Shown one piece after another: positions 29,951 to 49,597 of a stretch of 64,000 nt of DNA; the stretch's first letter is position 1; each line of letters starts with the position of its first letter. Under the pieces are notes generated by a model, which did no database searches, had not been told where the DNA came from, and saw only the letters and a program-made list of their open reading frames with translations. A program made the position numbers and the translations under genes. Source of the DNA: a virus; the IMG/VR virus record IMGVR_UViG_3300034418_008897, positions 16,525 through 80,524 of that record. One strand, written 5' to 3'.

Positions 29951-30601
29951 TTATTCTATTGTTCTATATATAACATCTTGTGCTTCATCATTTAAAATCC
30001 AGTTACCCACACCTTCTAATTTATAAGCGTAAGGCACTGTGCTTTTTTCTCTAGTTACAGTTTTATTACCATCTTTATCTGTAGTAATTACAGTAACATA
30101 TTTATAAATAGCATCTTTAAACTCTTTTGTTGGAGAGTTTTCTTCAAGTTCTATTTTTGGTTTTAATTCTTTAGAAGGAGAAATCTCAACAATAGATAAA
30201 GCCGCCCTCATTGGCATCTTATCTACTTTAGGCTTTTCTTTTTTAACTTCTTCAATTTTTGGAACAGAAGCTGCAACAGTTTTTAAAACTACTTTTTTAG
30301 GTTGCTTTATATCTTCAAAACTGCTTATATTAAACGGTTGATTATTTTTAGCTTCTAACCTTTTAATAGCTGGTACTATAACAGTAGCCTCATAAGATCT
30401 ATTTTTTTCAGTATAATCTTGGTATGCTTTAACTTTTTCCTCTTGAGTATTTAAAGTTTTTAATTTAGATTCTAATTCTTTAAAATAATTAAAAACTTTT
30501 GCGCTATCCGCTTCACTTTCTTTTAAGCCAGTTAAAGCTATGGGGTCTGTTGTGTAATAAACCCCGCTTGTACCACTCTGATATTTTTTTAGTAGTGACA
30601 T
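29951..30601 (-). CDS. Tagged putative cargo protein
   Basis: Starts MSLLKKYQSG, matching the N-terminal tag of the 37-49.6 kb array. Confidence 0.55.
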   Translation of the reverse strand: MSLLKKYQSGTSGVYYTTDPIALTGLKESEADSAKVFNYFKELESKLKTLNTQEEKVKAYQDYTEKNRSYEATVIVPAIKRLEAKNNQPFNISSFEDIKQPKKVVLKTVAASVPKIEEVKKEKPKVDKMPMRAALSIVEISPSKELKPKIELEENSPTKEFKDAIYKYVTVITTDKDGNKTVTREKSTVPYAYKLEGVGNWILNDEAQDVIYRTIE

Positions 30602-32977: not shown

Positions 32978-33565
32978 TTATAATGTATATAAAATATCAA
33001 ACTGATTAACTGTTTTCAATTTACAATCACTTTCATTTAGTATAAGATTTCCACAAAATGGATCAAAAGCTACAACAGTGCCTTTTTTATATTTTTTAGC
33101 TTCTGGACCACAAGAAATAACTTCACCTTTTTGAGTTAAAGCTGATCTTGGATCTTCTTTACTATCATCATAAATACCGTCTTTTACAAGACCTTCACCT
33201 ATAATCTTAACTAAAATTCTATCACCTGTTGGTTTTACTGTTTCTTCTGTCATATTTTCAAAATTACTTGTTACTTTGGCCACTATATCATGACCTCTAA
33301 TTATCTTACAGTATCCATCTGTAGTTGGAACTCCATAACCTGCAAACTGAGAAAAAATAATATTTTCTCCCTCTTTCAGTTCAGGACACTGGCTTTCTTC
33401 AGTTGCTTTATCTCCTAACTTTAAAGCACTACCGTAATAGTACTCAATATTACTTTTAGTAGCAACTGGACCAGAACCAATATAGATTTCTCCATTTAAA
33501 TTAGGTAATTCTGTTACTTCAGCTAAAACGTTAAACCCTTCTGGTTTAATTGTTAATTTCTCCAT
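32978..33565 (-). CDS. groES: Tandem (two-domain) GroES-like co-chaperonin
   Basis: IKPEGFNVL...LKEGENIIFSQFAG...HDIVA, then VKPTGDRILVK...GEVISCGP...GTVVAF. Confidence 0.75.
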   Translation of the reverse strand: MEKLTIKPEGFNVLAEVTELPNLNGEIYIGSGPVATKSNIEYYYGSALKLGDKATEESQCPELKEGENIIFSQFAGYGVPTTDGYCKIIRGHDIVAKVTSNFENMTEETVKPTGDRILVKIIGEGLVKDGIYDDSKEDPRSALTQKGEVISCGPEAKKYKKGTVVAFDPFCGNLILNESDCKLKTVNQFDILYTL

Positions 33566-33626: not shown

Positions 33627-35900
33627 TTAATCATACATATATTTAGGGTTTTTAGGGTCTGTCATATCTATCCACCTAACCCCACCATGTCTATTGAAAG
33701 ATTGCGCATCATTTCTAATTTGGTTTTTAAAAGCTTTTTCTTCGCTGTTTTGGTTAGGAATAACACCGTATCTTTTTATTTTTTTACCATTAACATATTC
33801 AGAATAGTACCCAAATAATTGCAAACCTTCTGTTGCTTTTTCTGGTGGTTTAGCTTCTCTACCCATAAGATCTTCATCAGACAGCTCACATAATCCCATA
33901 GCAATAACAAAATCGTATTTTGTTCTGTCTTCTCTATTGTAATCTTGTAATTGCTCTAATAATTCAGGAAACCAAATAATATCGTAAAAATCATCTATAT
34001 AAGCCTTTATTTTTTGGTCCATATGGTCAATTATGGGACCAGCAGCTGTAGTACCTATAAGATTAGTATGTTTGTTTGGATCGGCATTTTGTAAATTAAT
34101 AGATGGCCTTTTCTTTAGTAAGTGATAGAAGCCTTGATCTCTAAACCAACTTACAATACCTATTTTAGTGTATTCTATATTTACTTCAGCATTAAAATAA
34201 TAAGCTAATTTTAAAGCATTGTCCCAATCATCTCTTACATTGTCGGATCTTTTGTTATATTTAGCCACATATATATTAGAAGTAGTTCTAAAATAACCTT
34301 TAGACAAAATCCTTTTCTTTACTAATATTGCTAATTCTGATCCTTTTCTATTATCTTTTGCATAAGATGAATCTGCTAAACCTTGGTCAATACTATCACA
34401 ACCAGCAACATATAAATTAGACATAGGTTCTTTTTCGTCGTCCGCCGCGTCTTCTGATAACCAGTGAGGGTGCTCTAAAATTTCTACATCCCCAACAGGG
34501 CTAGGGTTCCAGGTAACACCTATAATTTTACCGTTTTCAGCCCTTTGCCATTTTAAAAATCCTTTACCTGGTTTTGGGCAATCTGGGTTATGAGAAATAT
34601 TTATACGTTGAGTGGCTATTTTATCTTGGTTGAATATATTAGTACCTCTTCTAGTAAATACTTCTTTAATATTCATAGGGTATTCTTGCAGTAAACCAGA
34701 ATAAGTTTCAGGTTCATTTTTAGCTGCTTCTCTTTCTTTATTTACTTGCTCTGTAGCAAGTTCTACATCAGGGCAACCAGTTACTTCCCAAGTACCAGCT
34801 CTTTTAATATGAGTTGGGCAAAAGAAACCTGATTCTATTTCAAAGTCGTTAGTTTCTAAAATTTCATGGGCCCTAGGATTACAAAATATACCTTCAGCTT
34901 CGTCATTCTCTATAGTACCACCAGTACCAGAATAAAGCACTTGACATTTTTTAATACTACCCATTACATACCATGAACCACGACTTTCTCTTTTACAAGC
35001 CCCTAAAGACCCTTTTTGGTGGGAAGGCGGGAAAGCTGCAAACTCTTCTATTAATTGCTTAGTTGGACGCTTACCCCTTGTTTTACCGGCGTTTTTACCG
35101 TAGATGATTTTTTCATATTTACTTAAATGACCTCTATCTTCTGTAGTACCGTCGGGTAATTCTACCCTTTCTCCTGCATATTTCATATCAGAAGAGTCTG
35201 TAATAAGTTTTAATTTTAAAGGTCTATGTAAAGCTTCTATAGCATTTAACCCGGATTCTATTTTATTCCAAGCCTCGTTTGTTGTTTCTTCATTGGTAGA
35301 AGATACCAAGATATGGCTTTCAACCATAAGTCTAAACTCACGGTCTAATATACAGTTGTACATGAAAGATTTACCTACACCACGACCACCCATAATGGCC
35401 GCATCTTTATTGTTTAAATAAGCTTTCCAACAATAATCAAAGAAGTATCTATCTATATTACTGTATTGAGGGTGAGAGGTTGTAAAGTCTTCTGTTGGTT
35501 TTCCATCTATATAAATAGGAACAGGAAAAACAAAAATATTTAACCAGTAAACAAAAAATGGATTATAATATTCACCATCAATAAATACTCCATCGTAGCA
35601 GTAATCTATTAAAGGCTTATACCATTCTTCCATATCTAAGCTGTCTGGGTGAAAACTAGGTATATTTCTCCAAGCTGTTAATTCTTTAGGCAAAGGCCTG
35701 TACACTAAATAATCAGTTAATTTTATTTCTTCATGGCCGGTAGGAACACCAGTTAATCTTTTAGGGGCATTAGTAACTTCAAATTCGCCATTCCATATTC
35801 TACCGTGCTCATCCTTTCTAAGAAAATCTAAGTCAAAAGGGTCATACTCATTTTTTACTCCAAAAAGTTCTGGTATTTTATCTACATTAACTGTTTTCAT
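33627..35900 (-). CDS. terL: Terminase large subunit
   Basis: Walker A GGRGVGKS, Walker B LIEEFA, GTGG motif, nuclease YVAGCDSID and D.VIAMG. Confidence 0.92.
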   Translation of the reverse strand: MKTVNVDKIPELFGVKNEYDPFDLDFLRKDEHGRIWNGEFEVTNAPKRLTGVPTGHEEIKLTDYLVYRPLPKELTAWRNIPSFHPDSLDMEEWYKPLIDYCYDGVFIDGEYYNPFFVYWLNIFVFPVPIYIDGKPTEDFTTSHPQYSNIDRYFFDYCWKAYLNNKDAAIMGGRGVGKSFMYNCILDREFRLMVESHILVSSTNEETTNEAWNKIESGLNAIEALHRPLKLKLITDSSDMKYAGERVELPDGTTEDRGHLSKYEKIIYGKNAGKTRGKRPTKQLIEEFAAFPPSHQKGSLGACKRESRGSWYVMGSIKKCQVLYSGTGGTIENDEAEGIFCNPRAHEILETNDFEIESGFFCPTHIKRAGTWEVTGCPDVELATEQVNKEREAAKNEPETYSGLLQEYPMNIKEVFTRRGTNIFNQDKIATQRINISHNPDCPKPGKGFLKWQRAENGKIIGVTWNPSPVGDVEILEHPHWLSEDAADDEKEPMSNLYVAGCDSIDQGLADSSYAKDNRKGSELAILVKKRILSKGYFRTTSNIYVAKYNKRSDNVRDDWDNALKLAYYFNAEVNIEYTKIGIVSWFRDQGFYHLLKKRPSINLQNADPNKHTNLIGTTAAGPIIDHMDQKIKAYIDDFYDIIWFPELLEQLQDYNREDRTKYDFVIAMGLCELSDEDLMGREAKPPEKATEGLQLFGYYSEYVNGKKIKRYGVIPNQNSEEKAFKNQIRNDAQSFNRHGGVRWIDMTDPKNPKYMYD

Positions 35901-36783: not shown

Positions 36784-36966
36784 CTAAATTTTATATTTAT
36801 CCCATTTACTATCTTCTTCCATCTGCGGTCTGTGTAATCTTGCAATAGTAGTCTCTTTATAAGTTTTGTGTAAAGGATCTTTTTTAATTTTAGGTTCTAC
36901 AATTTTTTTATTGTCATCGTAAACTTCAAATCCTTCGTCGCTGTCGTGTAGATCGTCTAAGTTCAT
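36784..36966 (-). CDS. Small protein starting with the scaffold-type LDDLH motif
   Basis: MNLDDLHDSD; directly follows the stop of 36968..38704. Confidence 0.55.
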   Translation of the reverse strand: MNLDDLHDSDEGFEVYDDNKKIVEPKIKKDPLHKTYKETTIARLHRPQMEEDSKWDKYKI

Positions 36967-36967
36967 T

Positions 36968-38704
36968 TTAATTTTGTTTTTGATAGATAATTTTACCGTT
37001 TTTTATTTGTTTTATTATATTACCTTTCGAGTCAAAAAAATCTATTACTCTAGAATCTGCCCCTAAAGTATTATCTAAAACTTCTTGCTCTCTAGATACA
37101 GGGTTTGTTCTTCTTGAAATATAGGGCTCAAATCCTTCTTCTATAGTAGTCTTTATAAATCTATCTTTATAATTAGAGTTAGTTTCTATGCTTTTTTTCA
37201 TTAAGTCTCTTGCTGATTTTTCCCTTAATCTAGTTGCTTCTTTTAATTGATTAAACTCATCTAAATTTCTAGGCATACCAAGGCGAACAGAGTTAAAACT
37301 TTGAGGTTTTTCAACAGAAAGAAGAGTTGGTTGTTTTGCTTTTTTAATTGGGTATTTTAAAGCCATTACAGCAACCGGGTCTATCATTACATCAGCGATG
37401 GTATTAGTAACAGGATTATTTATTCCTTTGCTTTGTAAATAAGAACTTGGAGTTAAATGTTTGTTATTTGTAAACGCAGACATCATCATGTTTTGAGGAA
37501 TGCTAAACATATCTAATAAAGTAGTATTATTAGATAATTCTATTTTTTCTGTACCAGGTTTATTATTTCTTAAATTATCTTCGTAAATTTTATTTTTAAC
37601 ATCTTCTTCTTGTGCAGGTATAGCATTTTTATTTAACTCTGCTGCACGTTTACCATCTGGATCTTTAATTGGAACATATCCGTTTGTTTTTCCAGGAATA
37701 TTAATCATCCAACCAAATGCACCTTTCTGGTACCTTACACCTGGTCTACTTGGGTAGGTGTAGGTAACTGGACTTGTGCCATTTTGGTATTTTTTAATGT
37801 ATAAAATTCCGCCTTTGCGAGCCATCATTATTTTATTTTTATTATTTGTATTAGCAATAGTATTAAAAATTTCTAATAAATCATTGTCATTAAATCTCTG
37901 CTCTAATTGTTCAAGTTGATTTCTCCCATTTATACCTTTCATTTTAGCTTTTATTTTTTCTAAAATTTCCGGGGTCATTGTTTCTGTATAAGGATCGAAA
38001 ATGTTATTATCTTTTGCAAATTGCAATATTGCATCTTTTCTAGCACTTATTTCTTCTAATCTACCTAAATAATTTAATTCCTTCAAGTTATTAATAATAT
38101 GTTGCTTGCCTTGGTCGGTTTTTAAAAAATCTTCATAAGGCATCGACATAAAGAAATTATTTTCTTGTTCATATTTTAATTTAGCGTTTTGTGCTAATTT
38201 TGTGTCTTTAAAAAGCTCATATGCTTTATAAGGATTATTGTAATCAAATATAATTGCTTTTGCTTCAGGCATTTTTTCTGGCGTTGCAATTTGCCACTTT
38301 TGGTAATCATATTTTGGGAATGTATGGCCAGTTTCATTACTATTAGACATATGTCTATATTCATGAGTTTTAACATAAGGATTATAATCTGGCATATTTG
38401 TAAACAAAGTAACATTTCTTTTACCTTCATAATAATTAGGGCTAGGATTAGCTTCCCCTAATACATTTGATAAAATAGGAGGTTCATTTGTTTCAAAATC
38501 ATTTAAATTTTTTAACCTTTCAGTTATTATTTCATCTGCTTTCAGTTGTAATTCTTCTTTATTTAAATTTGGAAAATCTTTACTTAAAGAATTCAGTAAT
38601 AATTCTTTGTGTTTAGGTGAATTAAACCAACCTTCTAAATATTCTTTTGAGTCGCTTGGGCTAACTAAAGTATTACCTTTTTGATATTTTTTTAATAATG
38701 CCAT
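36968..38704 (-). CDS. Tagged cargo protein with zincin-like HExxH domain; appears to be two fused units
   Basis: MALLKKYQKG; THEYRH...EEISAR; internal KGGILYIKKYQNG; shared ~45-aa module. Confidence 0.65.
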   Translation of the reverse strand: MALLKKYQKGNTLVSPSDSKEYLEGWFNSPKHKELLLNSLSKDFPNLNKEELQLKADEIITERLKNLNDFETNEPPILSNVLGEANPSPNYYEGKRNVTLFTNMPDYNPYVKTHEYRHMSNSNETGHTFPKYDYQKWQIATPEKMPEAKAIIFDYNNPYKAYELFKDTKLAQNAKLKYEQENNFFMSMPYEDFLKTDQGKQHIINNLKELNYLGRLEEISARKDAILQFAKDNNIFDPYTETMTPEILEKIKAKMKGINGRNQLEQLEQRFNDNDLLEIFNTIANTNNKNKIMMARKGGILYIKKYQNGTSPVTYTYPSRPGVRYQKGAFGWMINIPGKTNGYVPIKDPDGKRAAELNKNAIPAQEEDVKNKIYEDNLRNNKPGTEKIELSNNTTLLDMFSIPQNMMMSAFTNNKHLTPSSYLQSKGINNPVTNTIADVMIDPVAVMALKYPIKKAKQPTLLSVEKPQSFNSVRLGMPRNLDEFNQLKEATRLREKSARDLMKKSIETNSNYKDRFIKTTIEEGFEPYISRRTNPVSREQEVLDNTLGADSRVIDFFDSKGNIIKQIKNGKIIYQKQN

Positions 38705-38728
38705 ATTATTATATATATTATAAATATT

Positions 38729-38884
38729 TTATTTTTTCAAGTTATGTATAGAATCTATTATATAATTTAAACAAGTATCATTATATTTAACGTAATATTT
38801 AGCAAATTTTGTTAAGTTATTTATATTTTCCGGGCTAGCATCTGCCATATCCCCTTTTAAAACTTCAGGTAAATCAAAATTCAT
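38729..38884 (-). CDS. Small hypothetical protein (probable start MNFDL at 38884)
   Basis: ATG 1 nt after the stop of 38886..41102. Confidence 0.4.
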   Translation of the reverse strand: MNFDLPEVLKGDMADASPENINNLTKFAKYYVKYNDTCLNYIIDSIHNLKK

Positions 38885-38885
38885 A

Positions 38886-41102
38886 TTACTTATTTCCTTT
38901 GTTATAATTTTCAAGGTCTTTTTTTACTCTGTCCATATGTCTTTTTGCCATATAGCCTAGAGGAATACTTGTTGCGCCAAGCAAACCAGCAGCCCCCTTT
39001 ATAAACTTATTATTTGAAGCTTTATCCCAGTCTCTAAGCACATCCATTTGCTTTGTATTAGCTGCATTTTTAGTACCCAACATAGTTAATTTAGCTGTTG
39101 TTTTTTGATTATCTCCTAAAGTACCTGGAGAAAATTCTTCAATAGTTTCAATAAGCTTATTGCCTTTATGATCAAAAAATTCACCTGAATCGTTGTAATA
39201 TATTCTATTTTTCAAATCAAAAGGTTTACCACCTGTTAAAGAAGAAACTTCAAAATCTCTGACTTTATTAGGTAAGAATTTCATCTTTTTTAATGGTTGT
39301 AAATCCCATGTATCTGTAAAATCAATAAATTTTCTACCTTGCTCATCTACACCTTTTGTAATCCAACCATTACCATGCACACCACCAAAATTTAATTCTT
39401 TTTCAATTTCCATAGTACCAAATGATTTTTTAGGATTATCTATTATTTTTTGCAGTTTATTCTTCTCTAATTTAAAATCATTCAGCGCTAATGTATTATC
39501 TGCGTTTTTAGAGAAAGTATTAAACTCAGGTTCTAATCCGTTGTATAATCTCCAAGAATCAAATCTATTTTTAGTAGCGTAAGTTTTTGGCTTAAACTTC
39601 AAAGCTTTAGGTGTTATTACTTCTAATGGGGCTCCAGCTACTGTAAATAAATCATAACCTATAGGAGTTATAGATCTATTAACAATTTTACCTAACAAAT
39701 TATTTTTAGCTTGCTTTGTATAGGTTTTCATTATTTCTTTTTGTCTCTCAGGACTAAATCTAAAACCAAAACCTTCATATTTATTTGTAAATTGATTCCA
39801 TTTAGCATCATTATATTTTCTTTTTAAACCTTTTAAAAAATCACCTTTGGGGGCAACAATATCTTCTCCAAGATTAATTAAATCTTGTGGAGCTACATGA
39901 GAAGCTACTCCATGAATAAAATCTACCTTATTTACATTTATATTTTTAAGTTCTGGATTTAATTTTACTAAAGATTCATATACAACATTTAATTCAACTG
40001 GCTCTACAAGTCCTGCTTGAGATCTTCTAGCAAATTCATTTAATCTATTAACATCAACTCCTTCTGGTAAAACATAGTCATGCCCAAATTGAGGATTTAC
40101 AAGTTTTGATTTTTTAATAGAAGGTTCAAATTTTTTAGTAACAAAATTATAATAGGAATCAGAATTCTTTTTAATAGCATCCACTGCTCTATAATGTACA
40201 GGATCTATACCTACTTGAGTCTTAGCAGATTGTAAATTATATTTTGGAAATTTATATTCAAAATTAGGTGAGCCTGGTAGTTGTTTAGTAAAATTATTAG
40301 CTAATAAACCCCTAGCATCATCTGCATATTTACCTAATACTTTACCGCCTAATCTTACCACATCAGGAGCCTTGTATAATAATCCTGCAGGAGCTGTAAC
40401 TATACCCGGCAAAGAAGCTGCATTTAAAGTATTTGGTGTGTATCTACCTGATAAAGCATCTCCTAATGTAGTAGGTTGATCGGCATTAGTAGCATATTTC
40501 ATAACAAATGAACCTGGTATATCTGCAAAAGAAAGAGCATCAGCAGCATTTCCTAATTTTTGCATTACACCTTTAGGGTAGTAATATTTCGCTTCTTCAG
40601 CTGGAGTTAATCCTTTTATATCAGGTGTAAAAGTCGGTCCTTGCTTTCCTGTTAAATTTAAGAAGCTGTTAGCTGCGGATACTGCTCCACCTTTGGTTCT
40701 TGCCCACAATGAAGGCTCTATATATTTAGCATATTTAGAGTTAGGCATTGCTTTAGAAAGAATCTTAGCGTTAACTAAGTTATTCATTATAGACTCTCTA
40801 TCTGTAAGATCTATATTATTTTCTTTAGCATACTGCTCTATAACATAATTATTTCTATCATAATCATATCGATTGTGTATCCTTTGTTCAGCTTGCTCAG
40901 GAAAATTTCTTTCGTTTACATTAAATAAATTTTGTAGTCCTTTATTACCTTTGTTTAAGTAATTATCTTTTTCATTTATAAGGTAATCACGATAAGGATT
41001 TTTAGAATTATAATCATTATAATACCTAGTTAAAGGAGTTATAGATGTTTCCTTTAACGTCTTTCCTTTTTGGTATTTTCCTATTTTATTATATAACATC
41101 AT
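38886..41102 (-). CDS. Tagged cargo protein with unknown C-terminal domain
   Basis: MMLYNKIGKYQKG; Gly/Ala helical mid-region; DSWRLYNGL...DTWDLQP...GKPF domain; hydrophobic C-terminal helix. Confidence 0.6.
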   Translation of the reverse strand: MMLYNKIGKYQKGKTLKETSITPLTRYYNDYNSKNPYRDYLINEKDNYLNKGNKGLQNLFNVNERNFPEQAEQRIHNRYDYDRNNYVIEQYAKENNIDLTDRESIMNNLVNAKILSKAMPNSKYAKYIEPSLWARTKGGAVSAANSFLNLTGKQGPTFTPDIKGLTPAEEAKYYYPKGVMQKLGNAADALSFADIPGSFVMKYATNADQPTTLGDALSGRYTPNTLNAASLPGIVTAPAGLLYKAPDVVRLGGKVLGKYADDARGLLANNFTKQLPGSPNFEYKFPKYNLQSAKTQVGIDPVHYRAVDAIKKNSDSYYNFVTKKFEPSIKKSKLVNPQFGHDYVLPEGVDVNRLNEFARRSQAGLVEPVELNVVYESLVKLNPELKNINVNKVDFIHGVASHVAPQDLINLGEDIVAPKGDFLKGLKRKYNDAKWNQFTNKYEGFGFRFSPERQKEIMKTYTKQAKNNLLGKIVNRSITPIGYDLFTVAGAPLEVITPKALKFKPKTYATKNRFDSWRLYNGLEPEFNTFSKNADNTLALNDFKLEKNKLQKIIDNPKKSFGTMEIEKELNFGGVHGNGWITKGVDEQGRKFIDFTDTWDLQPLKKMKFLPNKVRDFEVSSLTGGKPFDLKNRIYYNDSGEFFDHKGNKLIETIEEFSPGTLGDNQKTTAKLTMLGTKNAANTKQMDVLRDWDKASNNKFIKGAAGLLGATSIPLGYMAKRHMDRVKKDLENYNKGNK

Positions 41103-41104
41103 TT

Positions 41105-43618
41105 TTAATTTTGTTTTTTATTCCAAGGGTTATAAAGTAAAGATCCTAAACCTATTGGAGCTAATGCCTTATATATATTAGGGTTAGTCATGTCAAACAT
41201 TCCATTATTACCTATTAAAGATTTAAGTCTATTGTTACCTTTAAAGAATATTACATCATCCCCTATATCTTCTCCTGGTTTTAACTTTAAAGAATTATCA
41301 TAATTATCTACAACATTTTTAGCTGTAAAAGAATCGAACCCTTGTTTTTTATATCTTTCTGCTAATTTATTAGTAGTAAGAGGCGAAGTTTCACGAGCAT
41401 TAGGATCTAAAAAATCATTTTTTTGGATTGTCATATCTTTTTTATAAGGGGCAGATTCAGGTAAAGATTTTAAATATTTTTCTGCTGCTTGTTTTGATCT
41501 AAATGTATTTCCTTCTGGAGACAGCATATTACCAAAAGCATCATATTGCATACCTTCTTTATTATTAGAACCTACGACATAACCACTTTTCTTACCTATC
41601 CAACTATTTCCTTTATAATCTACAGATTTATTTTTACCTAAATTTGCTCCTAATTCTAGCACCTTACCTTTATCCCCAGCATAAGTTTTAGCTATGTTTT
41701 TGTTAGTAGTCGTAAAAATTAGGTCAGGGTATAAATTTCCACTAGTTAATCTTTCTGCTTTACTTAAATCAAATTCTGTTAAATCTCTAGCTGGAGTTCC
41801 GTGGTATAGTACATTTTTATACATATTTTCAGCTTGTTTTTCCCCCCCTGCAAATCTTGTTAAATTTTTAGATTTCATTTGGACAAACTGTTCTGGACTA
41901 CCGTTGAATTTAGTACCGTCACTATATTTCATCCATGTTCCATCAGCTTTAGCTTGTTGCTCAATAGCATTATACTCTTGCATTAAAGCTTTATTTTCTG
42001 GTATTTCTTTATTCCATTTACCCCAATCTATTTCAGATTTAAAATCTTGAGTAGGTAATAAATCAGATAAGTATTTATTTGTATTGATTACTTTAGATTT
42101 ATCTGCTTTTGCTACTACTTCATCTATACTGTTTTTCCATTCTGTTATATCGTATTTAGCACCGCGTTTTTCTATTCTTTTTACAAACTCATCTTTTGGT
42201 ATATTTATAATTTTATCAAAAGAGTCTAAATTATTCCTTAATAAGTTTGTATTTGATGTAAACAATACTTGCCCTTTACTTTTAGCTTCTTTTTTAACTT
42301 CATCAAATAAAGACTGCATCATTTGATTATATTCTTTATTCCATACTTCATTACCTCCGTTCTTTACTTGATATGTAGAAATATTATACTTTTTTGCAAT
42401 ATCATTTACTGAATTATTTATAACATCTGCATAGTCATCATCTAAAGATAAAAACCTATTGTCACCGGCTTGCTTTAAATAACTTTTACCTATAGTTGGA
42501 TGACCAAATATAATTTCATCTGTGTTATTTATTACCGGTTCAAAAACACTTCCTGTAGCTTGCCCTACATCTTGAGCTTTTGCTCCTACAACTGCTTTAT
42601 TATAAGCTTTTCTAACAATTGGATTATATTTTGCACTAGCTGGGTTTAATTGAGGCACTAACACAGATCTGAAATCGTTAGCTACACTAGTTGGAGTGGA
42701 ACTAATCCTAGGAATTATTTTATTACCTATAATATTGTTTAATTTAGAAGAGTTGCTTAACCTCATAGTTTCCAAAGCAGCGCTTTCTCCCATGTTCATT
42801 AACCTACCAGAACGACCAATTAATTTAGTACCTGGTATAAGATCTAAAGCCGTAAATGCCGTTGAAGTTAAAGCATTTTGCCAATCCTCCATTTTACCGC
42901 TTTTTATTGCTTTTCTTATGTCCTCTTCAGTGTAAAGAGCATCATTACCAGCATTAATTAAAGCAGTAGTTGGGTGTAAATATGAAGCTGCGTTTAAACC
43001 TTTTAAAACAGTGTTATTATCAAAAACGGGATCTGAAAATCCAGGCGATCTTTCCATAGCACTATAATTCATAGGCATATTGAAAGGCCCAGGTTTTAAA
43101 AAATAAGCTGTTGCTACTAGAGGGTTTCTAATTATGTTTCCAGCTTTATCTGCCCAAGTATATTCAGGAGCCGATTGTATTGTCCCAGGATCTTTCGGAT
43201 ATACCATTGCTGGTATATAACTATCTATTTTGTTTGTATCTAATAGGATTTTAGCTTTATCTTCTTCAGACAACCAATTAGCATTTTTAATTTTATCTAC
43301 TACTATAGATCTTTCAGCAGCTCTTCTTTTTGAACCCTCTTCAACTATATTAGCAGCTGTATTAGCTATAAGTAAATTTTTTGGTTGAGTTGATTCAGCA
43401 ACTTCTACTCTAGGTAAAGAATTAAAATTAGCTGTATTAAAATTAGAATAAGGTATAGCGTTCTTATTTAATTCTGCTGTTCTTTGTTCTACATTTCCAG
43501 CAGTTAATGGTAAATATTTACCATTAATTTCTTTAAACCATTTATCTCCTTCTTTCTTATAATTGTGGTTATTATATCTATAATACCCGCCGTCTTGATA
43601 TTTTTTTAATAATGCCAT
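41105..43618 (-). CDS. Tagged polyvalent-like cargo protein: P-loop kinase-like domain plus ADP-ribosyltransferase-like domain
   Basis: MALLKKYQDGG; IIFGHPTIGKS; LYHGT...EFDLS...IFTT.NKNIAKTY; LKSLIGNNGMFD..NPNIY. Confidence 0.65.
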   Translation of the reverse strand: MALLKKYQDGGYYRYNNHNYKKEGDKWFKEINGKYLPLTAGNVEQRTAELNKNAIPYSNFNTANFNSLPRVEVAESTQPKNLLIANTAANIVEEGSKRRAAERSIVVDKIKNANWLSEEDKAKILLDTNKIDSYIPAMVYPKDPGTIQSAPEYTWADKAGNIIRNPLVATAYFLKPGPFNMPMNYSAMERSPGFSDPVFDNNTVLKGLNAASYLHPTTALINAGNDALYTEEDIRKAIKSGKMEDWQNALTSTAFTALDLIPGTKLIGRSGRLMNMGESAALETMRLSNSSKLNNIIGNKIIPRISSTPTSVANDFRSVLVPQLNPASAKYNPIVRKAYNKAVVGAKAQDVGQATGSVFEPVINNTDEIIFGHPTIGKSYLKQAGDNRFLSLDDDYADVINNSVNDIAKKYNISTYQVKNGGNEVWNKEYNQMMQSLFDEVKKEAKSKGQVLFTSNTNLLRNNLDSFDKIINIPKDEFVKRIEKRGAKYDITEWKNSIDEVVAKADKSKVINTNKYLSDLLPTQDFKSEIDWGKWNKEIPENKALMQEYNAIEQQAKADGTWMKYSDGTKFNGSPEQFVQMKSKNLTRFAGGEKQAENMYKNVLYHGTPARDLTEFDLSKAERLTSGNLYPDLIFTTTNKNIAKTYAGDKGKVLELGANLGKNKSVDYKGNSWIGKKSGYVVGSNNKEGMQYDAFGNMLSPEGNTFRSKQAAEKYLKSLPESAPYKKDMTIQKNDFLDPNARETSPLTTNKLAERYKKQGFDSFTAKNVVDNYDNSLKLKPGEDIGDDVIFFKGNNRLKSLIGNNGMFDMTNPNIYKALAPIGLGSLLYNPWNKKQN

Positions 43619-43623
43619 AATAC

Positions 43624-45429
43624 TTATTTTGCAAAGTTTTTAGCAAAATTAGCCTTCTTGACCATCTTACTACTATATTTATTCTTATTAGCTAAAATAT
43701 GGCTAGCTGCTTCTTGAACATCCATGCCCATTTTTGTAGCTTGCGCTTTAAATGTACCTTTCTTTTCAGGATCTATTTTTATAGTATTTCCTTTTTTATA
43801 TAAAAGACCACCTTTTTTAAAAATTGCAGTTTGAGGTATACTCTTACCTGCTGTTGATCTTATATAATTATCTAAATTATACATGGTTTTATTTACATAC
43901 TTATTTTTTGTGGCATCACCACGCAATAGTACACCTGGACTACGCCAAGCAGTTGCCCATCTTTCTTCAGGGCTTAATTCTACATTACCCTCTGCTTGCC
44001 TATAAACTTCACCGTTTTTTACACTGTATAAATTGCCTTGATTGGGGTAGTATTTTTCTACTTCTTTTCTTAATAAAGCAGTTTTATATTGATCATCAAC
44101 GTCATAATTTAAGAATACTCTTTTACCATTAGGTAGCATATAATAACCATCAAATGTTTCATCTGGTTTTTGAAATGAACTACCTCTTAAATCCCTGGAA
44201 AAGAATTGCTTAGGTGAAGACCACATACCAGGAGCTTCTTTACTTTTAATAACCCTAGGATTTTCATTACCCCTATTATATAAGCTCTTAGAAGATTTAT
44301 CCAATTGGCTCAAATATATCATAGAAGCTAAACCAGCTTTATAAGGATCTTTTAAATCAGATCTAGATCTAATACCATATTTATCCGCTATACTCGCTAA
44401 CCTAGGGTCGTTAAAAATATTATCTGGGTTTATTTGAGTCATACCTATACTACTACCTACTAATTCTGAAGCATACCCTTTGATTCCCTTCAAAGATTTA
44501 CCGCCTTTGGTTTCGGTCATAGCAGTTGCGGTTAAAAAGTTAACCATTTGTTTGTATTTATCTGGGTCTAAATTTAAATCTTTAGCTAAATTATTTGCGT
44601 GTTGAACTAAAGCTAAAGTAAAATTACCTAAATCATGAGTTAAATATTTTTCCCCCTCACTACTATTATTTACTGCTTTTTCAAAACCAACTGATTTTTT
44701 AATTTTATCATAAGGATTTTGCACTTCAAAATCGTAGGATTTATTTTGCTCATCAAAAAACTTTTGAAAAAATTCTCTATTTAAATTTAAATTTTCTTCT
44801 GGTGCTATAACTGTTTGCAAATTATATTTTTTCCACACTTCTCTAGCTTCTGATAAAGTATATAATTTTTTATCATAAGCATCCATTAATATAGATTCCC
44901 CAGTATCTTTATCCCATCCTACTTTGATCATAGTATGGTTAGAATTTTTATAGCCTTTGGCTTTAGAATAACCATATGGGTGCATATCTTGATCAGGTCC
45001 CCATAAATAAAAAGTACCTACAGGGGTATCTAAATCAAAATTTTCATTTCTATTTTCATCTAAAATATTGTAAAAAGTCTTACCACTATCTGCGTATACC
45101 CCTGCTAAATCCCAACTGTCTACAGATCCCTTGTAATCACCTTTTAAATAAGGGTATTTTTCTATTTGTTCTGGTGTTGGTTGAGTAGATGTTGTCAATA
45201 AACCTCTAGCGTTTTCTATATCACCTATAGTTTTTACTCCAGGAATATAACCTAAACCTTTAGTATATAACAAACAAGCGTCCCCTTTACAATTACCCAG
45301 AGTACCTTCTAACATATTATCTCTAAAAAAGTCAGAATTAGCTCTGTCTTCTGCAGTATAAATTACTTTATCTATGCGAGTATTAAATCCTTTACCTGGT
45401 TGAAATTTTTTTACTTTGTTATATAGCAT
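43624..45429 (-). CDS. Tagged cargo protein, putative bifunctional peptidoglycan hydrolase (Cys/His peptidase-like plus lysozyme-like)
   Basis: MLYNKVKKFQPG; GDACLLY..DSWD..NHTMI; TETKGG..SIGMTQI..DPYKAGLASMIYL; FKKGGLLYKK followed by a basic KKANFAKNF tail. Confidence 0.55.
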   Translation of the reverse strand: MLYNKVKKFQPGKGFNTRIDKVIYTAEDRANSDFFRDNMLEGTLGNCKGDACLLYTKGLGYIPGVKTIGDIENARGLLTTSTQPTPEQIEKYPYLKGDYKGSVDSWDLAGVYADSGKTFYNILDENRNENFDLDTPVGTFYLWGPDQDMHPYGYSKAKGYKNSNHTMIKVGWDKDTGESILMDAYDKKLYTLSEAREVWKKYNLQTVIAPEENLNLNREFFQKFFDEQNKSYDFEVQNPYDKIKKSVGFEKAVNNSSEGEKYLTHDLGNFTLALVQHANNLAKDLNLDPDKYKQMVNFLTATAMTETKGGKSLKGIKGYASELVGSSIGMTQINPDNIFNDPRLASIADKYGIRSRSDLKDPYKAGLASMIYLSQLDKSSKSLYNRGNENPRVIKSKEAPGMWSSPKQFFSRDLRGSSFQKPDETFDGYYMLPNGKRVFLNYDVDDQYKTALLRKEVEKYYPNQGNLYSVKNGEVYRQAEGNVELSPEERWATAWRSPGVLLRGDATKNKYVNKTMYNLDNYIRSTAGKSIPQTAIFKKGGLLYKKGNTIKIDPEKKGTFKAQATKMGMDVQEAASHILANKNKYSSKMVKKANFAKNFAK

Positions 45430-45444
45430 ATCTTTTTTTTTGTT

Positions 45445-46338
45445 TTATTTTTTATACAATAAACCGCCTTTTTTGAATTTGTAAGTTTTAACAGCTTTAG
45501 CATATTGTCTTTCAAACTCAGGGTTAGATTTATATAAAATTTTATTTACATAATCTCTAGTTTCTCTAGGTAGCTCGTTCATCCACTCTTTCCCTTTATA
45601 AATATCTACGCCTTTTTTCTTTTGTTCATTCAAATATTCTAAAAAATTACCTCTTCCATGGTTGTAAGCTGCTAAAGTTTTAGCTAACCTTATCTCATTA
45701 GATTGATTAGGTTTATTAATGAAAGATGCATTATACAAATCAGTCATGTACCATTTCTGAATCTTAGCACTAACTTCAGGATCATATAAACTATCTGTAG
45801 ATTTTATTATTCCTGCTTTTACAGCATCCCCCTTTACATCAGGCATTATTTGCGCTAAGCCAGCAGCACCAGCGGGAGATACTGATTTAGGGTTAAAGCT
45901 AGATTCTTTAAATTGTTGTCTTAATAAAAAATCATTAGTGAATATTTCAGAATTTACTTTAGGCTCTGCTTTAGGCTCAGGTTTAGCATCTGATACAAGT
46001 TTAGGCTCAGAAGAATCTTTAATATATCTTTCTGGTTTTTCTGGTTCACCAAAGAAAGACTTACCATAAGCAGGTACATCTGTTCTTAGTTGTGTAGATG
46101 GTAATCTAAGCTCATCATTTAACTTTGATTTGCGAGATCCATCGGGGTCTTTTATAGCTACATAGTAACCATTAGTACTTTCATTCTTTATAAACCAATC
46201 ATCAAAAGCATCTTTCATATAAGTAGATCCTGGTCTTTCAGGGTGTACATATATTTTTTTATCGAAAATATCTGCTTCATTTATAGTTCTACCTGGAGCT
46301 TTAGGTTTTGGTTTTTTATCGTTGTACAATAAAGACAT
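45445..46338 (-). CDS. Tagged lytic transglycosylase (SLT family); probable start MSLLY at 46338
   Basis: KESSFNP..VSPAGAAGLAQIMP, LAAYNHG and ETRDYV motifs; ends FKKGGLLYKK. Confidence 0.85.
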   Translation of the reverse strand: MSLLYNDKKPKPKAPGRTINEADIFDKKIYVHPERPGSTYMKDAFDDWFIKNESTNGYYVAIKDPDGSRKSKLNDELRLPSTQLRTDVPAYGKSFFGEPEKPERYIKDSSEPKLVSDAKPEPKAEPKVNSEIFTNDFLLRQQFKESSFNPKSVSPAGAAGLAQIMPDVKGDAVKAGIIKSTDSLYDPEVSAKIQKWYMTDLYNASFINKPNQSNEIRLAKTLAAYNHGRGNFLEYLNEQKKKGVDIYKGKEWMNELPRETRDYVNKILYKSNPEFERQYAKAVKTYKFKKGGLLYKK

Positions 46339-46346
46339 AATTAAAA

Positions 46347-46601
46347 TCAATTCATTAAACTAAATTTTTGTCTGTAAGCTAATTTCTTACTAACTACCTC
46401 ATTATCAGCAATTTCTCTTACAGAACAAAATATAATATTTTCTTCTCCATACTTATCATACATATTTTGTATAGCTTCTACAGGATGTTTTCCTTCTCTT
46501 AAAAGCTTAAGATGTACAGAAACACTAGCATTAAAATCTTGAGTAGTATTAATGTAGATGTACTCATCTTGTATACTAGTTATGTAGTAAAGAGTTGCCA
46601 T
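46347..46601 (-). CDS. Degenerate GIY-YIG-like domain protein
   Basis: TLYYI...YIYIN...H.KLLREGKH...IQNMYDKYGEENI.F resembles GIY-YIG but lacks the YIG glycine and catalytic Arg. Confidence 0.5.
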   Translation of the reverse strand: MATLYYITSIQDEYIYINTTQDFNASVSVHLKLLREGKHPVEAIQNMYDKYGEENIIFCSVREIADNEVVSKKLAYRQKFSLMN

Positions 46602-46625
46602 AGAAATTTATAGTAAATAAAAAAG

Positions 46626-46654
46626 AAAAAACCAGAATAAATTAATATCCTGGC
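46626..46654 (-). terminator. Possible intrinsic terminator after 46682..47428
   Basis: Minus strand CCAGGATA-TTAATT-TATTCTGG followed by a T run. Confidence 0.55.
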
Positions 46655-46681
46655 TGAAATTTTTATATGTAAAATAATAAA

Positions 46682-47428
46682 TTAAAATCTATATTTTAAA
46701 CCTGCTCTGATATTATAATTAGAGTCGTATTTACCTTTATCATATCTACCTTCTAAATTACCTGATAATTTAGGCGTGAAATATTTTTCGGCATTAATAT
46801 TAGCGCCTACTCTGTAGTTTTCATTCTTACCTAGACCTTTTTCAGCGGAAGCAGAAACCCCTAAATAACCATTCTTCAAAGGCACTCCTTTATTAACATT
46901 ATAGCCTAAAGAAAAGCTAGGGCGGCTTATACCTTTATATGTCACAAATTCAGGAAATCCGGGTGCACTAGGTATTTTATCCATAGCGTAGTTAGCCTCA
47001 GCCTTGACCCCTAGGGACCCTAAATTTTTAGGTAAGTCTTTGTATAAACTAGACTCGAACCTATTAAACTCTTCTATCTGCGGATATTGTTCTATTATTT
47101 TTTCACCATTTTTATCTACATCTTCATAAATTCTCATTCTCTTTGCCTTCTCAAGGCTAGCCATACCATCAACTCTAAAACCTTTAGGCAAAGCAGCACC
47201 AGCACCACCCATTTTCATATAGTCATTGGGAGCTTCTAATCTTTCTTCATGGCTCCACCCATAAGCAGTAGGATTCCATCTACCAACAGGAGCTGATAAA
47301 TTTATCCTAGGTTCTTCTTTTTCTACTAAAGGGCTGGTATTCATAAACTTATGTTTAAGGTCTAAATCCTTTATATAGGAATTTATAGTACCTTCTGTTT
47401 GATATTTTTTAGTATATAGTAAAGACAT
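46682..47428 (-). CDS. Tagged protein with outer-membrane beta-barrel-like C-terminal half
   Basis: MSLLYTKKYQTEG; alternating amphipathic strands; ends YNIRAGLKYRF. Confidence 0.55.
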   Translation of the reverse strand: MSLLYTKKYQTEGTINSYIKDLDLKHKFMNTSPLVEKEEPRINLSAPVGRWNPTAYGWSHEERLEAPNDYMKMGGAGAALPKGFRVDGMASLEKAKRMRIYEDVDKNGEKIIEQYPQIEEFNRFESSLYKDLPKNLGSLGVKAEANYAMDKIPSAPGFPEFVTYKGISRPSFSLGYNVNKGVPLKNGYLGVSASAEKGLGKNENYRVGANINAEKYFTPKLSGNLEGRYDKGKYDSNYNIRAGLKYRF

Positions 47429-47430
47429 AA

Positions 47431-48855
47431 TTATTTTTTATTATATAATATTCCTCCTTTGTTAAACTTATAACTACCGTAATAATTAGGTTTAGTACTC
47501 TCTTCTCCTGTTTCTGGGTTATAGTATAATATAGGTTCACTTACATCTTGCCAACCATCGCTATCTTTAAAAAAAGCATCTTTTTGAGTTCTAACTTCTT
47601 TTACTTGATGTCTGCCTGTTTTAGGGTTAAATACTAAAACTGTTTGCATTCTAGGGCTCGTCATAAGCGGAGTATAATAATCTTTAAGAGAGCCTGTTTT
47701 TTCTATAATAGGTCTAAAATCTGGTTTTTTAACCATAGGTCTCATTTCCATTTTATCTGGAATGATTGGTTTAGGCTTACTTATTAATCCAAGATTAAAT
47801 TTTATAGATTTTTTACCATTAGTAATTAAAGGATGATCATACCGACTAGTTGATGGTGGTAAAGTTCCAGTTAAATTCTTATAATCTTTAAACAAATCCT
47901 CCAATTTTTTCTCTTCTAATTTCCACTTAAGAGCCCCATTATAATCATCAGGCTTTATTTGTTTTAACTTTGCTAATCTTTCTTGTTGCATCTTATAGAT
48001 AGCCAATTCCAAATCGTATTTTTTCTTTTCATATTCAAAACTTGTCTTTTTAGGTGGCTCAATAGAAACAAGAGTCTTTTTTAACGAAACACCAGTATTG
48101 TTACTTTTTAAATCTACACTATCTATAGGTTTAGCATTTTTGTCCAAAAAAGCAGATCTTTTTGCTACGTCTGTTTTTAATTCTACAAACTTACCATTAA
48201 TTTCTTTTTGCCATTTACCATTTACTTTCCTATAAGTATTACCTCCATAAGTATAAGAACCTGCCCAATTTTTAGGATTAGAAGGTGGTAATATAGGTTG
48301 TATAGGGTTAGCAGGAATTTCGTCTTGCAAATAAAAATATTCTTTTTTTTGTTGATTATAAATTTTATCAGAAATTAACTCTCGTTCTTTGTCCGACGAT
48401 GCTTGCTCATAGTCCTCCCAAAGGCTACTAAAATAAGGAGAATGAATATGAGTACCTATAAGACGACCCCCGTGTAATTGATTTAACCTACTAGGAATTT
48501 TATTCCATAAATCATCACCTGACCCTATTAAAATTCCTTGTTCATCTTTAAGAATTATTTTATCACCTCTATTTTCAGGCTCATAACCGGCAGCAGCAAT
48601 TTGAGCAAAAATAGGACTTTTCCAACGATCATAATCCCATATACTATAATTATTTATATTATTTTGTATTTGATTTCGCGTAGTTTTAAAATCCTCCACT
48701 GCTTGTACATGCCTAGTATTACTATCGTTGTAAGCTTGCAATCTATTATTATATTCATCCCAAGTTTGAGCCTGGTAAGGATTAGTTTGAGGACGATAAT
48801 TTAAAGGATCTATCCTTCTACCTTTTTGAAATTTTTCTACATATAATAAACTCAT
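47431..48855 (-). CDS. Tagged cargo protein, unknown function
   Basis: MSLLYVEKFQKG; shared ~45-aa module; ends FNKGGILYNKK. Confidence 0.6.
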   Translation of the reverse strand: MSLLYVEKFQKGRRIDPLNYRPQTNPYQAQTWDEYNNRLQAYNDSNTRHVQAVEDFKTTRNQIQNNINNYSIWDYDRWKSPIFAQIAAAGYEPENRGDKIILKDEQGILIGSGDDLWNKIPSRLNQLHGGRLIGTHIHSPYFSSLWEDYEQASSDKERELISDKIYNQQKKEYFYLQDEIPANPIQPILPPSNPKNWAGSYTYGGNTYRKVNGKWQKEINGKFVELKTDVAKRSAFLDKNAKPIDSVDLKSNNTGVSLKKTLVSIEPPKKTSFEYEKKKYDLELAIYKMQQERLAKLKQIKPDDYNGALKWKLEEKKLEDLFKDYKNLTGTLPPSTSRYDHPLITNGKKSIKFNLGLISKPKPIIPDKMEMRPMVKKPDFRPIIEKTGSLKDYYTPLMTSPRMQTVLVFNPKTGRHQVKEVRTQKDAFFKDSDGWQDVSEPILYYNPETGEESTKPNYYGSYKFNKGGILYNKK

Positions 48856-48859
48856 ATTA

Positions 48860-49597
48860 TTAGGAATTATATCTTTGGTTAACCCAGTTCCCTCCTTGTG
48901 GTTGAGGCTTAACTTTATGTTGAGGCTTGACCTTCTTTCTTATAGCATTTAAATTAGCTGTTGCACTTAGCCCTGCGTTCCAAGTAAAATAAGGTTTGTC
49001 TTTATAACTTGAATTTGCTATACCTGCATTGCCGTATAAATTAAAAGAAAAAGGAGATTTTTTAGGTTGATAAGACAAACGCCCATAAGTACCCATAGTA
49101 GCTTCACCTTTTGCTTCTTGTTCTTTTTTAAGTAAACCTGCAAGGGATAAATAGTACCCATAAGTCCCTTTTAAATTAGAACCGTATTTACCTATATCGA
49201 ATTTAGAGCCTAGATGTCCTTGATGAGTTAATTTTAACCCATCATTATTAAATGAAGCTCCTATTCCTAACCCCATATCATATTTTTTACGAGGATTTTC
49301 TGTTACTTCTAAACCTAGCCTACCATATAATTTATTATTAGAATCTAAGGCTAAACCTACATCTCCATAAGTACGATTACCATCTAAACTAGTAACATTA
49401 GGATTTTTTATTCTATGTGTGTACATAAAATTAGTGTTGTAATTATTATCCCCTAGATTTGAATAATAATCGTTGCCGCCTTGTGTATATACAGCAAAAT
49501 TACTATTTAAAGGCATGCCGGTTTTTTTATTCCTCCCTTGTATATCATGCAGGCCAGTACCGCCTATTTGAAATTTTTGTACGTATAGTAAAGACAT
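48860..49597 (-). CDS. Tagged protein, beta-barrel-like
   Basis: MSLLYVQKFQIGG; Gly/aromatic alternating strands (YGDVGLAL, YGRLGLEV, FSFNLYGNAG, FTWNAGLSA). Confidence 0.5.
   Translation of the reverse strand: MSLLYVQKFQIGGTGLHDIQGRNKKTGMPLNSNFAVYTQGGNDYYSNLGDNNYNTNFMYTHRIKNPNVTSLDGNRTYGDVGLALDSNNKLYGRLGLEVTENPRKKYDMGLGIGASFNNDGLKLTHQGHLGSKFDIGKYGSNLKGTYGYYLSLAGLLKKEQEAKGEATMGTYGRLSYQPKKSPFSFNLYGNAGIANSSYKDKPYFTWNAGLSATANLNAIRKKVKPQHKVKPQPQGGNWVNQRYNS

Follow-up and report, generated by a model that had tools for sequence, protein, structure and literature searches.

Why should a row of phage proteins with different payloads begin with the same short peptide, and why should part of that peptide also turn up at the opposite end of some of them? 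The question is raised by eight genes at 36968-49597 of a 64,000-nucleotide stretch of viral DNA, here called the window (bases 16525-80524 of the 80.5-kb linear IMG/VR record IMGVR_UViG_3300034418_008897, a contig with an estimated completeness of ~65%). The genes lie directly upstream of the large terminase (TerL) gene and on the same strand (Table 1). They share an N-terminal tag of the form LLY-x-KK-[YF]-Q-x-G, and several of them also bear a C-terminal or internal form, KGG-[IL]LY-x-K. A preliminary description of this DNA took the peptide for a packaging or maturation-cleavage signal on a swappable set of virion cargo proteins. Sequence comparison points to a more specific origin, in which the tag is a split form of a junction between modules of crAss-like cargo proteins. 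Its function is probably, at a rough probability of 0.55, that of a hinge plus common docking handle on virion cargo.

Two halves of one motif

The two forms of the tag complement each other. An upstream half, [aromatic]-K-K-G-G-[IL]-L-Y-K-K, remains at the C-terminus of the preceding module, and a downstream half, (LLY-x-K)K-[YF]-Q-x-G(G), leads into the next one. N-terminal copies are without the upstream GG, C-terminal copies are without the downstream Q-x-GG and stop 2-5 residues past the core, and internal copies have both. One intact, unsplit junction, KGGILYIKKYQNG, is preserved inside g578 and, together with fused proteins in relatives, bears out the earlier suggestion that the N- and C-terminal peptides are halves of a single motif. 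All eight N-termini quoted in the preliminary description are present in the sequence, the start of the fifth gene (g301) being taken as ATG 46338 and not TTG 46350. The C-terminal FxKGG(I/L)LYxK that it listed for three genes is likewise there, at the very end of g301 and g474 and 55 residues before the end of g601.

A regular expression for the full tag matched nine times, all in minus-strand open reading frames (ORFs), versus 0.02 matches (maximum 1) in 500 residue shuffles, an enrichment of at least 400-fold. It had no match in the plus-strand, early ORFs, in line with the expectation that the motif would be restricted to late or virion genes. No tag is present in TerL or in the portal, major capsid (MCP), muzzle or fiber-like proteins. 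The peptide is not limited to the array, as it had at first appeared to be, since at least five further late proteins bear it: g216, g206 and three proteins of 696, 101 and 519 amino acids (aa) encoded outside the window. As a leader it is shared by nine N-termini in this genome and by 18 non-identical ones in close relatives. It contains no Glu, has neither hydrophobic nor twin-arginine character, and includes the second Gly in 2 of the 9 N-terminal and internal tags of this genome.

Selection acts on the peptide and not on the DNA, because 68 among 93 pairs of identical residues share a codon, no excess over the 63.4 that codon usage predicts. Synonymous codons vary from copy to copy, with TCT or AGT for Ser and four different Leu codons. 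This codon test rules out a DNA-level repeat. Two other candidates were rejected as well: a programmed frameshift or readthrough between genes, as the spacers of 2, 4, 5 and 15 nt show no consistent frame relation, and an AU-rich translation ramp, as the motif is also C-terminal and internal and has GC-rich Gly codons.

A module of ~50 residues comes right after the tag in g837, g578 (there behind the internal junction), g301 and g474, with the consensus Y-x-Y..RPG..Y-x-K..W...NG-x-Y-x-PI-x-D..G-x-R..LNKNA, and g301 and g601 have an SLT-like domain in common. The view that the genes are otherwise dissimilar therefore holds for most of their payloads, which do vary, but not for these shared parts.

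Table 1. Features of the window and of related loci. Positions are those of the window; positions preceded by an L number refer to the contig so named, L001 being given in genome coordinates.
Feature	Position	Strand	Description
g245	48860-49597	-	start MSLLYVQKFQIGG
g474	47431-48855	-	N-terminal tag MSLLYVEKFQKG; C-terminal half-junction FNKGGILYNKK
g474, internal module	48094-48261		residues 199-254
g248	46682-47428	-	N-terminal tag MSLLYTKKYQTEG; no signal peptide; end AGLKYRF
84-aa ORF	46347-46601	-	untagged; N-terminal part of homing-endonuclease PHROGs, E 1.7e-4
g301	45445-46338	-	truncated N-terminal tag MSLLYNDKK; C-terminal half-junction FKKGGLLYKK
g301, module	46117-46251		residues 30-74
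g301, SLT domain	45610-45909		lytic transglycosylase, PF01464, E 5.6e-17
g601	43624-45429	-	N-terminal tag MLYNKVKKFQPG; candidate Cys/His region; SLT-like region
g601, internal junction	43789-43821		FKKGGLLYKKG
g601, mini-domain	43627-43788		C-terminal
g837	41105-43618	-	N-terminal tag MALLKKYQDGG; C-terminal GLGSLLYNPWNKKQN
g837, module	43418-43588		residues 11-67
g837, ART-PolyVal domain	41195-41812		PF18760, E 6.1e-9, 37.2 bits (cut-off 31.2)
g738	38886-41102	-	N-terminal tag MMLYNKIGKYQKG
g578	36968-38704	-	N-terminal tag MALLKKYQKG; degenerate C-terminal half NGKIIYQKQN
g578, intact junction	37778-37816		residues 297-309
g578, module	37592-37765		residues 314-371
g60	36784-36966	-	60 aa; start MNLDDLHDSDE
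TerL	33627-35900	-	crass-type; phrog_6681, 1.6e-46; untagged
GroES-like protein	32978-33565	-	195 aa; PF00166, 2.7e-9, two stretches
Portal	30602-32971	-	crass-type; phrog_6547, 2.1e-51; untagged
g216	29951-30601	-	start MSLLKKYQSG
Scaffold-like protein	26743-27909	-	acidic, 388 aa, isoelectric point 4.2
MCP	25233-26648	-	untagged
g206	20334-20954	-	DUF5872 protein; internal LLYKKGG; C-terminal WKKGGILNSLIYKK
Crassvirus muzzle protein	13433-18811	-	1792 aa; PF25731 crAss_MUZ, E 1.5e-33; untagged
g519	L001:12272-13831	-	519 aa; upstream of the window
>2290-aa ORF	L001:1-6870	-	continues past the contig end
~305-aa untagged protein	L052:5939-6856; L054:4575-5492; L056:6983-7897; L064:2038-2958		start G-G-G-x-R-G

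A junction probably broken into separate genes

How such a peptide came to mark a whole array is suggested by the close relatives, sixteen IMG/VR contigs with TerL proteins 68-88% identical. They keep the terminase-portal-capsid backbone and have different small and large genes upstream of TerL, and their arrays hold these different genes with the same tags, so the gene set is indeed swappable, as had been proposed. Their N-terminal tags include MSLLYKYQSGG, MILRKYQLGG, MLLKKYQNGD and MILYKKKYNTGGILKYQTGG, and their C-terminal ones end in NGGVLYGKR, KKGLLY or AGLLYNKNKNK. In one relative (L054), an 87-aa ORF ends in FKKGGKLLYKKKSKMC and the next ORF starts one base later with MLLYKKGG. This second ORF encodes a mini-domain of ~60 residues, which in g601 is fused behind FKKGGLLYKKG. 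Fission or fusion at the junction is thus seen directly in the comparison of L054 with g601.

Events of this kind could mean that the junction is an exchange scar, kept as an in-frame, structurally neutral recombination point at which co-infecting phages trade modules, with the terminal half-sites as biochemically idle leftovers. Besides fission and fusion exactly at the junction, this explanation can draw on the arrays of close relatives, which differ in content and retain their junctions, on an identical 24-nt start in g837 and g578, and on the homing-endonuclease-like fragment within the array. It is nevertheless quite unlikely: same-codon use shows no excess, the peptide is conserved between clades whose DNA cannot be aligned, and C-terminal half-sites occur far above background, where a neutral scar would not maintain them.

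In distant phages the junction is found fused. There, GG-W-[LI]-x-K-Y-Q-x-GG occurs inside proteins of 1000-2500 residues and also at their extreme ends, terminal examples from this GGW clade being a start MAKWLDKYKQGG and an end KKNGGWLSKYK. A tag-plus-module profile, searched against 1.84 billion representative proteins, matched 299 of them at E<=1e-3, including 159 at E<=1e-10. Nearly all matches are internal and fall in proteins of 500-2900 residues, which hold as many as three copies. Outside this genome there are 195 module copies; GG stands at most 14 residues upstream of 143 of them, and 106 show [Y/F/M]-x-x-GG, the glycines being preceded by Q/A/D/P and then D/N/E. The other half has its counterpart at protein ends: G-Y-[IV]-[IV]-E-x-hydrophobic terminates 28 of 147 proteins versus 1.1% of random 14-residue windows, a 17-fold enrichment. 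The full general junction reads DYIE-x-DLTPEEI-x-x-Y-x-x-GG-YIVEDIS(IPSLNQ)MQDGG and is followed by the module. MAFFT places the terminal GLIYKTMK of the present clade under the terminal GYVIEELN, and LRKYQTGG under LNQMQDGG; the core is basic in this clade (LLYKK) versus acidic elsewhere (YIVEE). Judged by these alignments, the split tag is a lineage variant of a widespread crAss-type cargo junction and consists of its two halves. Literature searches with the motif strings found no paper, a search on proteolytic processing of crAss-like cargo proteins found none either, and no paper was found that describes the junction.

The loci examined among junction-bearing uncultured phages are all crAss-like. 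Polyvalent proteins with the motif follow directly after a muzzle-type giant gene in two of them (L033 and L068) and stand two small genes after the muzzle gene in a third (L010), where the giant protein matches PF25731 at 5.9e-38. This post-muzzle position, near rather than exact in L010, is that of the gp45 and gp46 genes of crAss001.

Kinship with cargo protein C1 and with polyvalent proteins

The gp45 (C1) and gp46 (C2) proteins of crAss001 were found in virions by mass spectrometry (PMC10172136), and cryo-electron microscopy resolved C1 both in the tail barrel and on the portal (Bayfield et al. 2023, PMC10172136; PDB 7QOG and related entries). On the portal wing, the resolved segment comprises residues 425-552. 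C1 was modelled as one chain from tail to capsid, and peptides from the connecting stretch were detected (PMC10172136). Three junction-type motifs lie along that chain as its authors modelled it. More generally, gp45 holds several aromatic-x-x-GG motifs, and its residues 425-435, AFGG-WLNTQGG, are the first of the portal-bound segment. The mini-domain at the C-terminus of g601 is homologous to residues 371-421 of C1, with pairwise E values of 7e-4 for g601 and 1e-6 for the L054 ORF. A profile of the mini-domain built from six relatives scores the same residues at 22.8 bits, where the best of 2000 shuffles reaches 7.5. Because a single-sequence phmmer search across the PDB gives E 0.34, the link to C1 is considered real but remote.

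The array and C1 both belong to crAss-type virions with a muzzle, and C1 has aromatic-x-x-GG motifs and, where its portal-bound segment begins, a GG-WLNTQ-GG junction. They differ in that C1 is a single protein of 842 residues whose gene follows that of the muzzle, whereas here at least eight separate genes lie upstream of the terminase gene. Moreover, no ART or SLT payloads have been reported for C1, and the core is here the basic LLY-x-KK.

The second kinship is with polyvalent proteins, in which two to fifteen disparate domains are strung together and for which packaging and injection have been predicted (Iyer et al. 2017, PMC5512222). The ADP-ribosyltransferase family ART-PolyVal was defined on them, and zincin-like MPTase domains are predicted to process them; the words 'linker' and 'glycine' are absent from that paper, which describes no junction peptide (PMC5512222). 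The array shares with them the ART-PolyVal domain of g837 and an association with head genes, and g578 may add a zincin-like domain, but the array is split into single-payload genes that retain junction halves. Modules number 2-4 each in g837, g601 and g578, most of the array has one payload per gene, and relatives have the fused forms of 500-2900 aa. By domain content, then, the array is kin both to the polyvalent proteins of Iyer et al. and to the crassvirus cargo proteins.

The tagged genes are best read as coding for cargo or ejection proteins in the virion of a crAss-like phage, because the fused forms are syntenic with the crAss001 cargo position, g601 is homologous to C1 and one payload is ART-PolyVal. 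The earlier proposal of a virion cargo-loading system is upheld as far as this cargo or ejection reading goes.

A different view holds that the tag has nothing to do with virions and directs or regulates proteins that do their work within the host during infection, such as lysing it or remodelling its envelope. In its favor, some payloads are wall hydrolases or barrel-like proteins, the array adjoins the early region, and relatives interleave an untagged gene that is patatin-like by eye (GGGxRG motif). The character of the tag, neither hydrophobic nor twin-arginine, speaks against such a role, as do the endolysin and small membrane proteins encoded elsewhere and the homology links to C1 and to polyvalent-protein domains. 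This view is accordingly held to be highly improbable.

A probable hinge and handle

What would the peptide do on cargo? In the preferred reading it is the lineage-specific form of a bipartite junction linking the modules of proteins carried in crAss-like virions. An ancestral multi-module cargo protein would have been broken into at least eight genes at the head of the structural block; each would still begin with the downstream half, and several would still end with the upstream one. Their products would comprise an SLT transglycosylase and another wall enzyme that is SLT-like, along with an ADP-ribosyltransferase, zincin-like and barrel-like proteins and others, most likely packed in the capsid or tail lumen and ejected before or with the DNA. 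On its flexible Gly hinge, a short core of basic and aromatic character (LLY-x-KK) would be exposed at the free terminus, whichever that is, and would give all these proteins the same handle for docking or threading; the junction would not be an obligatory protease site. We infer the virion location of these proteins, the docking and hinge role of the peptide and the absence of cleavage.

AlphaFold2 (AF2) gives the tag a predicted local distance difference test (pLDDT) score of ~50 beside a four-strand-plus-helix module at ~85. In a natural fused junction (P0103), the stretch IPSLNQMQDGG falls below 50, and the upstream element is a short helix at ~50-70 that is not packed on the module. The module model had no Foldseek match in the PDB at E<=1e-3. 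When the portal (67-row alignment) was modelled in complex with the tag and module, the score was 0.00, which favors neither side. Two clades display the same core at both ends of proteins, LLY-x-KK here and WL-x-KY in the GGW[LI]xKY clade.

Proteins are often processed at a Gly-Gly or at a short leader on the N-terminus, classic cases being double-glycine leaders and T4, where the capsid targeting sequence is the N-terminal leader of IPI-III and Alt and is removed by the prohead protease gp21 at L/I-x-E. The present tag is like that sequence in being a short N-terminal peptide common to unrelated proteins that are packaged and injected, with the head location here presumed. It is unlike it in that the sequences bear no likeness and the T4 leader is strictly N-terminal, whereas the tag is also C-terminal and internal. 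The peptide could accordingly be a maturation site, cut after or near G-G by a phage or host protease, so that the N-terminal 11-13 residues would form a removable, T4-like leader and the internal junctions would release separate enzymes, either within the capsid or once injected. Such processing would suit the exposed and flexible state predicted for the junction, the zincin-like MPTase processing predicted for polyvalent proteins (PMC5512222) and the HExxH domain of g578, whose weak structural neighbors are SprT-like, M78 and DUF2268 zincins.

Several features make cleavage unlikely all the same. The second Gly is kept in so few of the N-terminal and internal tags, and C-terminal half-sites end 2-5 residues past the core, with no prime side, yet are 17-fold enriched at protein ends. 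C1 was modelled as one chain across three such motifs (PMC10172136). Pfam and PHROG scans, which on this incomplete contig covered the late proteins except for roughly twelve small ORFs, detected no protease of the prohead, C39 or clan-CE type. The terminal half-sites and the poorly conserved second Gly therefore favor a handle or hinge over a two-sided cut site, and it is the position of the copies within proteins that best tells the two apart. A double-glycine leader with a C39 peptidase was rejected in particular, with the second Gly in 2/9 tags and no C39 or other cysteine peptidase family matched in these scans.

If the halves are not cut, they might instead hold one another. As a head-to-tail clip, the C-terminal half of one protein would bind the N-terminal half or module of the next, giving an ordered non-covalent chain for sequential ejection. 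In three gene pairs, g474/g248, g301/g601 and g837/g738, an upstream-half end is indeed directly followed by a downstream-half start. Both halves carry the same charge within a clade (basic here, acidic in the GYVIEE clade), however, which argues against direct pairing. The AF2 model of the fused junction, with its upstream element not packed on the module and its linker poorly ordered by pLDDT, points the same way, and the clip earns little credence.

A further analogy for the hinge and handle is offered by the encapsulin cargo-loading peptides, which are short and terminal and bind a known shell pocket. In both systems a flexible, Gly-rich stretch tethers a short peptide that may stand at the N- or the C-terminus of unrelated cargo, and the destination is, or here would be, the lumen of an HK97-fold shell. 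The sequences are unrelated and the analogy is one of mechanism only, the shell pocket being known for encapsulins. A bolder version of the preferred reading is a portable address-and-threading code, in which a core of ~5-7 residues on a Gly hinge, at either end, would suffice for docking in the portal or tail lumen or the capsid interior, after which the protein would be fed unfolded through the tail. This version is tentative and, on balance, doubtful.

Several observations weigh against the hinge-and-handle reading. The array does not share the post-muzzle location of cargo genes, standing instead at the start of the leftward block, beside the early region, and its late timing is an assumption. 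The contig being ~65% complete, a protease could lie in the missing part. PF25725 (crAss_CARG1), the C1 portal-binding domain, had no match at E<=1 in six frames of this incomplete 80.5-kb contig, and by that search the array proteins are not members of the C1 Pfam family. The regular expression found no motif in gp46, gp47 or gp49 of crAss001, and the motif is therefore not a universal crass cargo address. Neither a module-only protein nor a fused polyvalent protein had a match in INPHARED, where there is no module-bearing relative. Finally, g519 has a layout reminiscent of C1, but a comparison of its family with gp45 by hhalign aligned the Gly-rich stretch alone (probability 68%), so g519 is not called a C1 homologue.

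Few viruses of gut and aquatic Bacteroidota are as abundant as crAss-like phages, which carry megadaltons of protein cargo. A peptide that marks both fused and split cargo genes offers a handle on how cargo is chosen, tethered and threaded; it may predict which uncharacterized genes encode injected proteins, and it defines module boundaries for structural work. The split array suggests that a polyvalent protein can become a set of single-payload genes with junction halves retained. If the threading code were true, the lineage could load arbitrary enzymes, even an outer-membrane-type barrel, by adding a peptide. New here are the at least eight single-payload genes before the terminase gene, the charge-inverted core and the tag on a barrel-like protein without a signal peptide.

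Payloads of the array

Two payloads are confirmed by their Pfam matches: the SLT lytic transglycosylase of g301, whose PHROG matches include endolysin, lytic tail protein and internal virion protein, and the ART-PolyVal domain of g837. PF18760 was also matched in 11 of 17 relatives, and the ART region has one weak partial match in INPHARED, to the uncultured phage cr271_1 (24% coverage, E 1e-4). Of the other payload types listed at first, an HExxH zincin (g578), a barrel (g248) and a P-loop (g837) are leads, and the Cys/His hydrolase of g601 and a barrel in g245 are putative. The P-loop lead consists of a Walker-A region with a weak P-loop match. The HExxH domain of g578 was without a match in the Pfam scan, and its Atlas neighbors stay below 0.4 in template-modelling (TM) score by query; zincin-like is a lead only. 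Searches with phmmer against the PDB gave nothing useful for g578, g601, g837 or a 359-aa post-portal protein, and the profile A8 search gave no match.

The Atlas model of g248 has 10 structural neighbors, every one an outer-membrane barrel (autotransporter, Omp85, ShlB or FadL), with TM scores by query of 0.48-0.64, 9/10 at 0.54 or above, and a homologue search returned the protein itself alone. An outer-membrane-type beta-barrel is therefore a lead only, and g248 could be a virion-delivered outer-membrane channel. The cargo tag sits where a signal peptide would be. Relatives have in their arrays small tagged ORFs ending in GVRYRF, GVSYKL or TSRF.

The C-terminus of g245, GGNWVNQRY, resembles the GGW-type half-junction of other clades. 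The 84-aa ORF is probably a mobile endonuclease remnant between two cargo genes. In or beside the tagged arrays of four relatives lies the untagged ~305-aa protein of Table 1, which looks patatin-like by eye and has no counterpart in the window.

Tagged proteins elsewhere

The gene of g216 directly follows that of the portal, and its counterpart in L062 is a 205-aa protein starting MILYKKYQTGG. Relatives of g206 in L064 are terminally tagged and lie within the array upstream of the terminase gene. The 696-, 101- and 519-aa proteins have K[YF]Q-x-GG or [FY]KKGG copies. In g519 there are four [FY]K[KR]GG motifs, a Gly-rich, membrane-like stretch and a conserved C-domain (NVILxGPSH[DE]E.NNTGVKGDKGLPVV). 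Genes for the tagged 696-aa and 101-aa proteins and for an untagged 408-aa protein come just before the >2290-aa ORF, which has no junction motif and has weak helicase/AAA matches at residues 1450-1790.

Backbone of the phage

The structural genes form one long minus-strand block from ~49.6 kb downwards, and the plus-strand genes past 50.1 kb an opposite, early-type block. The muzzle Pfam match and the crass-type TerL and portal indicate a crAss-type virion. Since TerL, in tblastn, matched only Crassvirales and uncultured gut phages, at 21-35% identity, the phage is a distant, uncultured crAss-like one. Megablast and tblastn searches with the array found no match among INPHARED phages. Genes after the muzzle gene are fiber-like in this genome, with the array upstream of TerL instead, and a separate endolysin and small membrane proteins are encoded away from the array. 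A scan for promoters and terminators gave the same counts as in shuffles.

The gene of the 195-aa protein that matches Cpn10/GroES separates those of the terminase and the portal, and its product has the look of a phage co-chaperonin within the head module. A second terminal peptide is seen on the acidic scaffold-like protein, which starts LNLDALHNDDD and ends VDLDDLHSDF, and g60, just downstream of the array, starts with a similar sequence. In relatives, L-x-DLH-x-DD is retained on the scaffold-like protein, at its N- and C-terminus alike, as well as on small array ORFs; the peptide may be a capsid-binding motif that the scaffold has in common with a small protein.

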